Below, piece after piece: positions 18,001 through 24,000 of a DNA stretch of 64,000 nt. Numbering within the stretch: position 1 is the first letter of the stretch; each line of letters opens with the position of its first letter. A program made the position numbers. The DNA is taken from NCBI RefSeq assembly GCF_003991155.1, contig NZ_CP031293.1; one strand, written 5' to 3'. Origin of the DNA: Escherichia coli (GTDB lineage Bacteria > Pseudomonadota > Gammaproteobacteria > Enterobacterales > Enterobacteriaceae).

Positions 18001-21000
18001 AACCTGCATGATTTAGCCATTAAAGATGTACCGATTCTCAACGGCGACAAAATTATCTGCTCGCGTCTGAAACGAGAAGAAACCCTAAAAGTACCTTCGC
18101 CAGATACCATTATCCAACTGGGCGATTTGCTGCATCTGGTGGGGCAGCCAGCGGATTTACATAATGCGCAACTGGTGATTGGTCAGGAGGTCGATACCTC
18201 GCTGTCCACGAAAGGCACTGATTTGCGCGTCGAGCGTGTGGTGGTCACCAATGAAAACGTGCTCGGTAAACGTATTCGCGACCTGCACTTTAAAGAACGC
18301 TATGACGTTGTTATCTCGCGCCTGAACCGTGCTGGTGTTGAATTAGTTGCAAGTAGCGATATCAGCCTGCAGTTCGGCGATATCCTCAACCTGGTGGGGC
18401 GTCCGTCCGCAATTGATGCCGTTGCCAATGTGCTGGGGAATGCGCAGCAAAAACTGCAACAGGTTCAGATGCTGCCAGTGTTTATTGGTATCGGGCTTGG
18501 CGTATTGTTAGGTTCTATTCCCGTCTTTGTGCCGGGATTTCCGGCCGCGTTGAAACTGGGGCTGGCGGGCGGTCCGCTGATTATGGCGTTGATTCTCGGG
18601 CGTATCGGCAGTATCGGCAAGCTGTACTGGTTTATGCCGCCAAGTGCCAACCTCGCGCTGCGGGAGCTGGGGATCGTGCTGTTCCTCTCGGTCGTTGGTC
18701 TGAAATCTGGTGGGGATTTTGTGAATACCCTGGTCAATGGCGAAGGGCTAAGCTGGATTGGTTATGGTGCGCTGATCACCGCCGTTCCGCTGATTACTGT
18801 TGGCATTCTGGCGCGGATATTAGCCAAAATGAATTACCTGACCATGTGCGGGATGCTGGCTGGCTCCATGACCGATCCACCGGCGCTGGCGTTTGCTAAT
18901 AATCTTCATCCAACCAGCGGTGCGGCGGCGCTTTCTTACGCCACTGTCTATCCGTTGGTGATGTTCCTGCGCATTATCACCCCCCAATTACTGGCGGTGC
19001 TCTTCTGGAGTATCGGTTAACTCTTCTCCGGGTGGAGTCGCCGTAAATGGTACTCCACCTGGTATTCGCTGGCATTTCTGAACATCACTGAATAATTCAA
19101 AAACTCCCCGCTCTCGCTATAGGACAACGAGGTGATCCGCAGCAGTGGCGTGTGTTCCGCTACCTTCATTTGCCGCGCCAGCAGTCTATCGGCGAGCACC
19201 GGCGTCAGGCTTTCATAATTACCGCCAATCAGAATCCCGCACTCTTGTTCAATATATTCAAACTTCGACCCTTCCAGATGTTGCAGCGATAGGTTGCGGA
19301 ACAGTTTTACCGGCATATAGCTGTCTTCCAGCATCAGCGGTTTCCCTTCCACAAAACGAACGCGACGGGAGAAGTAGATCTGCTCGTTGATTTGAATCCG
19401 TAACTGGCTGGCAATGGCCGGAGGCGCAGGCATGATTTCAAAAATCAGCACCTGGCTGGTGACCGTTTTTCCCTGGTGTTTTAACACCTCCACCAGCCCG
19501 GTCAGGCTGGCGGTTTGATGCAATACATCTTTGCGCACCAGGTAAGTACCGCTACCGTGGCGGCGGACCACCAGCCCCCACGCTACCAGCAGATCAATGG
19601 CTTTACGGATGGTCATCCGCGATACCGCAAACTCTTCCGCCAGCTTTTTTTCACCGGGAAGAAGGCTGTTTAGCGTGAAATCTGCGGAATTAAGTCGAAT
19701 TCTTAACCGCTCCGCAATGCTTTTGTAGATCATCTCTAGATCTCTTTTTTGCCTGCAAGCCCGGGTAATGCGCCCACAAGTTCTGCTTAATCGATTGAAA
19801 AAACATCTTTTTTTTAAAGATGTGTTCGTTGCTGTGTACCAGTGCTCACAGATGTCTACTTTTTTGCGAAAACGTAGATCTCTACCGCCCAACGAAAAGC
19901 ATGAAAGCGATCACGAATCCCATTGGGTCGTCATGTTCTGCCGATCGCATCTTCCTATCCTCGCTCCAGGCCTGCCGCATAACCAATCAGGCTTCCTACT
20001 TACAGAATTGAGAAAAGAGGATGTGGAAATGCTCAGTCAAATTCAACGCTTTGGCGGCGCGATGTTCACGCCAGTGCTGCTGTTTCCCTTCGCCGGGATT
20101 GTGGTGGGTCTTGCCATCTTGCTGCAAAACCCGATGTTTGTCGGGGAATCACTGACCGATCCGAACAGTTTATTCGCGCAAATCGTACATATTATTGAAG
20201 AGGGCGGTTGGACGGTATTCCGTAATATGCCGCTGATTTTTGCTGTCGGTTTACCCATTGGCCTTGCGAAGCAAGCGCAGGGGCGAGCTTGTCTGGCGGT
20301 GATGGTGAGTTTCCTGACCTGGAACTATTTCATCAACGCGATGGGAATGACCTGGGGAAGCTACTTCGGCGTCGATTTCACTCAGGACGCGGTGGCAGGT
20401 AGCGGTCTGACAATGATGGCCGGGATTAAAACCCTCGATACCAGCATTATCGGCGCAATTATCATTTCCGGCATTGTGACGGCGCTGCATAACCGTCTGT
20501 TCGATAAAAAACTGCCGGTGTTTCTCGGCATTTTCCAGGGGACATCTTATGTGGTGATTATCGCCTTCCTGGTGATGATCCCCTGCGCCTGGCTGACGTT
20601 GCTCGGCTGGCCAAAAGTACAAATGGGGATTGAATCTCTGCAAGCGTTCCTGCGTTCGGCGGGTGCGCTTGGGGTCTGGGTTTACACCTTCCTCGAACGT
20701 ATTCTGATCCCAACCGGTTTACACCACTTCATCTACGGACCGTTTATCTTTGGTCCGGCAGCTGTTGAAGGCGGCATTCAGATGTACTGGGCGCAGCATC
20801 TGCAAGAGTTCAGTTTGAGCGCCGAGCCGCTGAAATCGTTGTTCCCGGAAGGCGGTTTTGCCCTGCACGGTAACTCAAAAATCTTTGGTGCCGTGGGCAT
20901 TTCTTTAGCGATGTACTTCACTGCCGCACCGGAAAATCGGGTAAAAGTGGCGGGCTTGCTGATCCCCGCAACCTTAACCGCCATGCTGGTGGGAATTACC

Positions 21001-24000
21001 GAACCGCTGGAATTTACCTTCCTGTTCATTTCACCGTTGCTGTTTGCGGTACACGCTGTGCTTGCGGCCTCAATGTCGACCGTGATGTACCTCTTTGGTG
21101 TGGTGGGCAACATGGGCGGAGGTCTGATTGACCAGGTTTTACCGCAAAACTGGATCCCGATGTTCAGCAACCACGCGGATATGATGCTGACCCAAATCGC
21201 CATTGGGTTGTGCTTTACCCTGCTGTACTTCGTGGTTTTCCGCACCCTGATTCTGCAATTCAACATGTGCACGCCGGGACGTGAAGATGCGGAAGTGAAA
21301 CTCTACTCAAAAGCCGAATACAAAGCCTCGCGAGGCCAAACCACCGCGGCAGAGCCAAAAAAAGAGCTGGATCAGGCTGCCGGTATCCTGCAAGCCCTGG
21401 GCGGGGTCGGCAATATCTCCAGCATTAACAATTGCGCGACGCGTTTACGTATTGCACTGCATGACATGTCACAAACGCTGGATGACGAAGTCTTTAAAAA
21501 GCTGGGAGCGCACGGCGTCTTCCGTAGTGGCGATGCCATTCAGGTGATCATTGGTCTGCATGTATCCCAGCTGCGTGAACAGCTCGATAGCTTAATTAAT
21601 TCTCATCAATCAGCAGAAAATGTTGCCATTACGGAGGCAGTATAATGACCAAATTCTCAGTGGTTGTCGCAGGCGGTGGAAGCACCTTTACGCCAGGCAT
21701 CGTGTTGATGCTCCTGGCGAATCAGGACCGTTTCCCGCTTCGTGCACTGAAATTTTATGATAACGATGGTGCGCGGCAGGAAGTGATTGCCGAAGCCTGT
21801 AAAGTCATCCTTAAAGAAAAAGCGCCGGACATTGCGTTTAGTTACACCACCGATCCTGAAGTGGCATTCAGCGACGTTGATTTTGTCATGGCGCACATCC
21901 GCGTCGGCAAATACCCGATGCGCGAACTGGATGAAAAAATCCCGCTGCGCCACGGCGTTGTTGGTCAGGAAACTTGCGGACCCGGCGGAATAGCGTACGG
22001 CATGCGTTCCATTGGCGGCGTCCTGGAACTGGTGGATTATATGGAAAAATATTCACCAAATGCCTGGATGCTCAACTACTCCAACCCGGCAGCCATTGTC
22101 GCAGAAGCCACGCGTCGTCTGCGCCCGAATGCGAAAATCCTCAACATCTGTGACATGCCAATCGGTATTGAAAGCCGGATGGCGCAAATTGTTGGGCTGC
22201 AAGATCGCAAACAGATGCGCGTGCGCTACTACGGCCTGAACCACTTTGGCTGGTGGACATCAATTGAAGATTTGCAGGGCAACGACCTGATGCCCCAGCT
22301 GCGGCAATATGTCTCTAAGCACGGTTATGTTCCACCGCAGCAAGATACACATACTGAAGCGAGCTGGAACGACACCTATGCAAAAGCGCGGGATGTCCAG
22401 GCACTGGACCCGGATACATTGCCGAACACCTATCTGAAATATTATCTCTTCCCGGATTATGTCGTTCAGCATTCCAACCCTGAACATACCCGCGCGAATG
22501 AGGTGATGGAGCATCGCGAGAAACAGGTTTTCGATGCTTGCCGCGCCATTACGGCGGCAGGAAATTCAGCGGCGGGCAAGCTGGAAATTGACGAACATGC
22601 GTCATACATCGTCGATCTTGCGGCGGCGATTGCCTTCAACACTCAGGAGCGGATGTTGCTAATTGTGCCTAACAACGGGGCAATCCATAACTTTGATGAT
22701 GAAGCGATGGTCGAAATCCCGTGTCTGGTCGGGCACAACGGACCAGAACCACTGGTGGTCGGCGATATCCCGCAGTTTCAGAAAGGGTTAATGAGTCAGC
22801 AAGTGGCGGTGGAAAAACTGGTCGTGGACGCCTGGGAACAGCGTTCATATCAGCACCTGTGGCAGGCGATTACGTTGTCGAAAACGGTACCGAGCGCCGC
22901 GGTCGCCAAAGCTATTCTGGATGAGTTGCTGGAGGCCAACAAAGCGTACTGGCCAGAGTTACGTTAATTGTGTGGACTGGCATCCGTTGGGTGCTGGTCC
23001 GTATTCTTCAGCACAGCTGACGGCGCATAACCAAATTTATTTTTAAAGGCTTTGCTGAAATGAAAGGAGTCGAAGAAGTTGAGCGTATCAGCGACTTCGC
23101 CAACCGAGTTTCCTTGTTGTTTTAATAGCGATAGCGCCAGATCCAGACGCGCATCGAGGTAATATTCTTTCGGCGTCTTGCCGGTATAGCGTAAAAACAG
23201 ACGACGCAACCAGGCTTCGCTACAGGGGATCGTGGCAGCCATATCAGCTACGCTCCAGCGTTGTTGCAGACTGGCATGTAAAGTGGCAATTAAATTTTCA
23301 ATTTGCCGCCGTTGTGGATCTTTTTTACCGTCTGCGTACATAAGACAAATCCACTGATAAATAATTTTCGTCAGAAAAGCGACTGCCAGATTATTTTTTA
23401 TTGCTTCTGGTGAAGTAATTAACTCAGCAACTTCGGTGAGTTCCTGATTATAAACTTCGCCATTATAAATAACGCTTTGCTGACCGACGGGAATATCCAT
23501 CATACTGGTGGGGGTAAATTCCATCCAGTACTGTTCCCAGACTAAACCTTCACAGTGATAAGAGTGAATATCCATTGGCTTTAAAAATATAATACAGTTG
23601 CCATGCAGAGTTATTTGTTCGTCATTCTTTAAAAGAATTTTCCCACATCCTTGTACGGTATACACCGCAACCCATGAGTTGGCGATAAGCGGTTTCTTCT
23701 TGTCCCGCGGCCAAATCACCCGATAATGCTCGTCGGCGTAGGTATGCCAGAGCGAGATCAGAGAAATTCCGCTGGAGATCACATTTTCGTTAATCAATAA
23801 GGGAATATTGTACGGAGTTTCGTTTTTTACATCCGAACTTTGCAATTTTCCATTCATTTTAATATCCCTCCGGCGAATTATGCTCACAACCTGAACTTAA
23901 CAGAAAACAATCCGTTCAGGGATACGATGTTTGTATTTTAAGAATCTGACTGCCTGACCCGACGCATTTTACCTCTCCCTATATTCATGCGTCCGGGACA

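Follow-up and report, generated by a model that had tools for sequence, protein, structure and literature searches.

An intact glv operon in Escherichia coli as the probable orthologue of Klebsiella aglR-aglA-aglB

The closest described relatives of the Escherichia coli glv genes are the agl genes of Klebsiella pneumoniae and the glv genes of Bacillus subtilis. According to PMC5309279 (citing Pikis 2006 and Thompson 2001), aglA and aglB enable E. coli K-12 to use methyl-alpha-glucoside, isomaltose and sucrose isomers, AglA functions with the host IIA-Glc, crr dependence is reported for AglA and for GlvC when these are produced in E. coli, and the K-12 homologues are already regarded as cryptic, nonfunctional or truncated. 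The B. subtilis GlvA/GlvC proteins confer a wider substrate set in E. coli, including panose and isomaltotriose (PMC5309279). Here we describe the corresponding locus in a 64,000-nucleotide stretch of E. coli DNA (contig NZ_CP031293.1; hereafter the window), which carries an uninterrupted gene for an enzyme IICB (EIICB) of the phosphotransferase system (PTS), glvG for a 6-phospho-alpha-glucosidase of glycoside hydrolase family 4 (GH4), and the divergent regulatory gene yidP. Positions 19017-22967 are probably the ancestral, undamaged yidP-glvCB-glvG locus, orthologous to Klebsiella aglR-aglA-aglB and, by analogy with the characterised proteins, predicted to serve alpha-glucoside uptake and hydrolysis.

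The Klebsiella operon has the same gene order, a divergent GntR/UTRA regulator and, in related genera, a yidE-adjacent neighbourhood; its EIICB also lacks an EIIA domain, and the full-length identities to K. pneumoniae ATCC 13883 are 81% for EIICB and 89% for the hydrolase. The E. coli locus, from a different species, differs from agl in being polymorphic (intact, partly deleted or absent). The B. subtilis glvA-glvR-glvC operon (malA-glvR-malP) encodes the same two protein families with the same chemistry (hydrolase 74% and EIICB 61% identical; GlvA structure PDB 1U8X), but its order differs, with the hydrolase gene first and one gene between it and the EIICB gene. That intervening gene is presumably the regulator glvR, which we take to be of the RpiR rather than the GntR type, and the physiological substrate of this maltose-6'-phosphate glucosidase system is maltose. 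In E. coli K-12, glvC, glvB and glvG occupy the same locus at ~99% DNA identity, with yidP and yidL as flanks in both, but carry Q369amber, P238Q and a 508-bp frameshifting deletion, none of which is present in the window.

Structural genes, their products and orthologues

A scan for open reading frames (ORFs) in window 17000-27000 showed the plus-strand EIICB frame to be open from 19768 to its stop; the ATG at 20029 (MLSQIQRF...) is the RefSeq-annotated start, with a Shine-Dalgarno sequence, AGAGGA, ahead of it at 20016-20021. The EIICB stop and the glvG start share one base (TAATG) and GGAGG lies 7 nt 5' of the glvG start, the usual sign of translational coupling. The ribosome-binding sites of both genes are good ones. 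The glvG stop codon overlaps the stop of yidL, a convergent AraC-family gene. E. coli 2016C-3878 (NZ_CP029747.1) matches the window at 100% identity, and for that strain RefSeq names yidP and annotates EIICB (WP_000952127.1) and GlvG (WP_000160110.1) as intact coding sequences, neither of them flagged. The preliminary description of this DNA had claimed an uninterrupted EIICB frame of 538 residues and a full-length family 4 glycosidase of 440 residues; the ORF scan and the unflagged RefSeq coding sequence confirm the former, and the ORF at 21645-22967, encoding both GH4 domains, confirms the latter.

Pfam places PTS_EIIC (PF02378, residues 10-346) and PTS_EIIB (PF00367, residues 453-482) on one EIICB chain. 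The protein scores 959.2 bits against TIGR02005, the model of alpha-glucoside-specific PTS transporter subunit IIBC (cut-off 607.3), and falls below the respective cut-offs of the glucose, NAG (N-acetylglucosamine) and MalX models. It contains GITEP from residue 322 and Cys469 in NNCATRLR; the GITE of EIIC and the cysteine of CATRLR, presumably the phosphorylatable cysteine of EIIB, are motifs that we take to be functional. The Pfam domain search found no EIIA domain in EIICB, and crr lies outside the window. The same protein, WP_000952127.1, is encoded in five of the eight undeleted genomes inspected, including O157:H7 and ETEC4075, and also in BS-01, a poor-quality assembly whose glvG is annotated as partial. 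These eight genomes, all with both coding sequences unflagged, were 2016C-3878 (identical to the window), O157:H7 FRIK2455, BL21(RP), E01, ETEC4075, B1.H1.18, VG888-46E9 and EC332.

GlvG consists of Glyco_hydro_4 (PF02056, residues 6-184) and Glyco_hydro_4C (PF11975, residues 195-415), both matched far above the cut-offs. With phmmer, residues 1-439 align to the 6-phospho-alpha-glucosidase structure 6DUX (E 3e-275, 916 bits), like 6DVV an AglB structure and, we presume, that of the K. pneumoniae enzyme, and GlvG also matches B. subtilis GlvA, 1U8X, from end to end with an E value of 6e-225 (750 bits). The matches to the 6-phospho-beta-glucosidase 1S6Y (212 bits) and the alpha-glucosidase 1OBB (55 bits) are much weaker. 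GlvG shares with both 6DUX and 1U8X the GGGS of residues 10-13, the Cys169-Asp170 pair within ICDMP and the His200 within GLNHF, and the CDMP and NHFGW motifs as a whole are those of the solved 6-phospho-alpha-glucosidases. From the GlvA structure we take Cys171, Asp172 and His202 of that enzyme to be its metal-binding and catalytic residues and the glycine motif to bind NAD. The GlvG protein WP_000160110.1 is also found in another strain.

A search with GlvG through single genomes, one for each species, returned 78 loci. Throughout the Enterobacteriaceae the order yidE, divergent yidP, EIICB, hydrolase recurs, with identities of 72-82% for YidP, 72-84% for EIICB and 86-92% for GlvG, and the regulator-EIICB-hydrolase module is also found in Serratia, Aeromonas, Proteus and Pectobacterium; in Firmicutes both structural genes occur but are arranged otherwise. 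A divergent GntR/HutC regulator beside co-oriented EIICB and hydrolase genes characterises the Enterobacterales, Aeromonas and Vibrio albus loci (L003-L050), with the exception of L016, which is cut off upstream. YidP itself has a GntR helix-turn-helix and a UTRA domain (Pfam), and its divergent relatives beside the EIICB gene share 41-82% identity with it (Enterobacterales, Aeromonas and one Vibrio). Synteny and orthology across the Enterobacteriaceae thus indicate that the intact E. coli operon is the vertically inherited ancestral state, an orthologue of aglR-aglA-aglB, and that the K-12 form is derived. Horizontal acquisition of the intact operon was considered and rejected: the yidE/yidP synteny is conserved across genera, and the DNA resembles that of other E. 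coli as closely as core-genome DNA does.

If the proteins act as their characterised counterparts do, EIICB, having no EIIA of its own, would receive phosphate from the general PTS via IIA-Glc (Crr) and would import and 6-phosphorylate alpha-linked glucosides, among them methyl-alpha-glucoside, isomaltose and five sucrose isomers (trehalulose, turanose, maltulose, leucrose and palatinose). GlvG would then split the 6-phospho-alpha-glucoside, with NAD+ and Mn2+, into glucose-6-phosphate and the aglycone. Repression by YidP would probably hold until the arrival of an inducer, which may be phosphorylated. K-12 would have lost this route by three lesions, the codon-369 amber, P238Q and a repeat-mediated 508-bp deletion in glvG. 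Because the genes are full-length, all the family features that were checked are present and the proteins are orthologues of the characterised AglA and AglB, it seems reasonable to predict, as was done earlier, an alpha-glucoside route for this strain that is missing from K-12.

The RefSeq product name of the full-length, 538-residue EIICB is 'PTS sugar transporter subunit IIB'. The NCBIfam equivalog NF007255, a model of 161 positions, matches EIICB residues 378-538 (372 bits against a cut-off of 321), which is the extent of K-12 GlvB. The name appears to have been inherited through this model from the K-12 pseudogene fragment, and TIGR02005 fits the protein better.

Table 1 Features of the glv locus in the window
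Feature	Position	Strand	Description
EIICB gene, alpha-glucoside-type PTS	20029..21645	+	538 aa, uninterrupted; corresponds to K-12 glvC + glvB and to Klebsiella aglA
glvG, GH4 6-phospho-alpha-glucosidase	21645..22967	+	440 aa, full-length; corresponds to Klebsiella aglB
yidP, GntR/HutC-type regulator	19017..19733	-	238 aa, divergent; counterpart of Klebsiella aglR; presumed repressor of the operon
yidP-EIICB intergenic control region	19734..20028		295 bp; candidate elements from alignment of 19 regions
Codon 238 of EIICB	20740..20742	+	CCG (Pro) in the window; CAG (Gln) in K-12 and strain CI5
Codon 369 of EIICB	21133..21135	+	CAG (Gln) in the window; TAG (amber) in K-12
508-bp segment absent from K-12 glvG	22238..22745	+	direct repeat GAACCACT at 22238-22245 and 22746-22753

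Lesions in K-12 and glv alleles among E. coli genomes

Aligned with window 20029-22967, K-12 MG1655 shows 18 substitutions and one 508-bp gap. A C to T change at 21133 creates the amber at codon 369, which leaves a GlvC of 368 residues and a GlvB of 161 residues starting at Met378, and a C to A change at 20741 produces P238Q. Leaving aside the K-12 haplotype, all 70 orthologues compared, from Enterobacterales to Clostridia, have proline at position 238, in the motif GLHHFxYxPF. The segment missing from K-12 glvG is not a multiple of three in length and is bounded by the 8-bp repeat, so the frame shifts past residue 200 and the product has 212 residues. RefSeq flags the K-12 EIICB gene as 'internal stop' and glvG as 'frameshifted'. 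That glvC and glvB are split in K-12 and glvG is a truncated pseudogene had been stated in the preliminary description, and the lesions and both flags bear this out; the pairwise alignment finds all three lesions absent from the window.

The distribution of these alleles was counted over 5,426 complete RefSeq E. coli genomes, a biased collection in which counts are not population frequencies. At least 80% of window 19500-23500 is present in 4,261 genomes, and the 508-bp glvG segment in 1,652 of the 5,426 (30%), O157:H7 and BL21 among them. By subtraction, about 2,610 genomes (48%) have the K-12-type glvG deletion and about 1,157 (21%), with less than 80% of the region, largely lack the operon. 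To tell the alleles apart, 51-mer queries were built around the variant base at their centre, which forces any megablast seed to include it. Codon 369 is CAG in 3,921 genomes and TAG in 348, for which the listed examples are K-12 laboratory derivatives; codon 238 is CCG (Pro) in 2,481 and CAG (Gln) in 1,792. In the non-K-12 strain CI5 the deletion junction and the 815-bp glvG remnant are identical to those of K-12, and in strain MDR_56 a deletion of ~3.9 kb fuses the end of yidE to yidL.

Pro238 is retained in at most about 830 of the glvG-deleted genomes (by subtraction). With Pro238 present in glvG-deleted genomes and the amber in only 348, the transporter gene has stayed open long after loss of the hydrolase, which reflects either recent loss or a separate role of the transporter. 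Compared with O157:H7, the window differs by 17 nucleotides and no amino acids in the EIICB gene and by 16 nucleotides and 3 amino acids in glvG; so few amino-acid relative to nucleotide differences indicate purifying selection in the lineages that keep the operon.

The intact allele is already annotated, common and ordinary, and its observation in the window, though correct, is not new: being ancestral, present in ~30% of the complete genomes and annotated before, the intact operon is no peculiarity of this strain. The polymorphism was also visible already in pangenome work, since 6-phospho-alpha-glucosidase is listed among the enriched accessory genes of isolates from Bangladeshi households (PMC6968650).

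Several individual alleles were seen in passing. In the whole-operon-loss allele of MDR_56 (L084, 5905-5995), ~50-70 nt of the yidP 3' end remain, the junction includes a short stretch matching neither flank, and yidL lacks its last ~33 nt, giving YidL a new C-terminus and 288 instead of 297 residues. In BL21(RP) (L082, 42-679) yidP is frameshifted beside intact EIICB and glvG genes. In VG888-46E9 and EC332 (L090 and L091, 3827-5607) the place of yidL, yidK and yidJ, just 3' of an intact glvG, is taken by a tnpA of the IS200/IS605 type, which is degraded, and a gene for TnpB (InsQ), which is intact.

The control region and competing readings of the locus

When the yidP-EIICB intergenic regions of 19 loci in Enterobacterales and Aeromonas were aligned, they showed a conserved inverted pair, TGTCTA ... 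TAGACA, with window copies ATGTCTAC at 19852-19859 and GTAGATCTCTAC at 19874-19885, the latter being itself palindromic. The pair at 19852-19885 is a plausible candidate operator for the HutC-type YidP. An inverted-repeat finder with a 6-nt seed returned only A/T-rich pairs at 19795-19826, and the GTCTAC/GTAGA motifs are visible in the multi-species alignment only. A further conserved block, ATGAA(A/T)GCGATCACGAAT, has the window copy CATGAAAGCGATCACG at 19900-19915 and, in resembling a CRP site, is a tentative candidate for one; the block is centred ~60 bp upstream of where transcription would start if TATCCT (19956-19961) is a -10 element, as it may be. The Shine-Dalgarno sequence of the EIICB gene is likewise conserved among the 19 regions, and K-12 differs from the window at five positions of the intergenic region.

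A number of points weigh against a working alpha-glucoside route in this strain. The CRP-like candidate has 3 mismatches, and the window holds 224 such matches where 224.6 are expected; with the consensus match at chance level, it is only conservation across genera that speaks for the assignment. Within the species, damage to the operon or its loss has come about in several ways, by the 508-bp deletion, the ~3.9 kb deletion, the amber and the yidP frameshift of BL21, and this repeated damage fits weak or intermittent selection on an operon that is perhaps silent under ordinary conditions. In classical identification tables E. coli is reportedly scored as forming no acid from methyl-alpha-glucoside. 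As to the literature searched, tests of the type strain DSM 30083T, whose glv allele was not determined, gave negative results with palatinose, turanose and methyl-alpha-glucoside; no report of expression or growth for E. coli with an intact operon was found, and no link between genotype at the glv locus and phenotype on palatinose, turanose or methyl-alpha-glucoside in PMC4334874, PMC3917908, PMC6150544, PMC3446290, PMC10286668, PMC13054288, PMC3938415 or PMC9145129.

The genes could be intact and the operon nevertheless cryptic, as bgl, asc and chb are, and silent in the wild type unless a regulatory mutation activates it. A consensus scan of 19650-20100 for promoters and terminators gave no hit, and so no sigma-70 consensus promoter, which also counts against the route itself; the repeated loss within the species points the same way, the frameshifted yidP of BL21 beside intact structural genes resembles an activating mutation, and the K-12 homologues have been termed 'cryptic or nonfunctional' (PMC5309279). 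We nonetheless regard a cryptic operon as unlikely, given that selection on EIICB and glvG between distant lineages is strongly purifying, that the intergenic regulatory blocks are conserved across genera and that the syntenic, orthologous operon of Klebsiella is inducible and functional according to literature cited in PMC5309279. Far less credible is a route that is dead in this strain owing to a disabling missense change within one of the open frames. Such changes do occur at the locus, P238Q of K-12 at an invariant site being an example, yet the EIICB of the window is the most widespread E. coli allele, WP_000952127.1 (O157:H7, ETEC4075 and others), and has Pro238, its GlvG recurs in another strain, and the motifs taken to be catalytic or metal-binding are identical to those of the solved enzymes. 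A hidden lesion in the window was also considered, and rejected on the ground that widespread alleles without a pseudogene flag encode the very same proteins.

A functional system might also act on substrates other than the Klebsiella set, whether maltose and maltitol, as in B. subtilis, or an alpha-glucoside derived from the host or the diet. EIICB is only 81% identical to AglA, and the B. subtilis GlvA/GlvC pair has the wider range in E. coli mentioned above (PMC5309279), but the hydrolases are 89% identical and both synteny and regulator are conserved, which favours an unchanged specificity class, and we consider a different substrate doubtful. About as doubtful is the broader proposal of a natural polymorphism at the locus, whether balanced or decaying, in which ~30% of genomes would keep a working route and three or more separate lesions would account for its loss from the rest; an open EIICB gene with Pro238 persists in several hundred or more of the glvG-deleted genomes. 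The reading as an undamaged orthologue of the Klebsiella agl system is the one we favour.

Surroundings of the locus and implications

The window spans dnaA, gyrB, dgo, ibpAB, yidE, the glv locus, uhp, iatC and eilA. Between ilvN and uhpA, at 32950-36100, lies an islet of low GC content (30-38%, compared with about 56% in the flanks) with two plus-strand ORFs, 33045-34340 and 34556-36058; RefSeq annotates just 160 residues of the first, and neither matched Pfam or PADLOC. The islet is found in 1,110 of the 5,426 E. coli genomes, near full length in 643, mostly at 90-95% identity, a divergence well beyond that of the core genome around it. The stretch 47392-64000 contains iatC, a 9.97-kb inverse autotransporter adhesin gene (47392-57357, plus strand) with internal tandem repeats of ~291 bp that show as periodic pattern matches at 51042-55131, followed by eilA, encoding a HilA-family regulator, and genes for type III secretion translocators and chaperones (SipB-like, IpaD/SipD-like and SycD-like). 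To our knowledge the iatC-eilA island is missing from K-12.

For the glv locus, several consequences may follow. If YidP is the repressor, BL21, in which yidP is broken, may express the operon constitutively and would be a natural constitutive mutant. If the losses were adaptive, or if an orphan EIICB functions without GlvG, it would exemplify how lineages of gut E. coli adapt to their particular niches. Isomaltulose (palatinose) and isomaltose occur widely in foods as ingredients and in feedstocks as impurities; the polymorphism may have dietary or industrial relevance. K-12 is a poor reference for the glv locus, and metabolic models and phenotype predictions based on it miss an alpha-glucoside route that may exist in about a third of sequenced E. 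coli, including O157:H7 and BL21.

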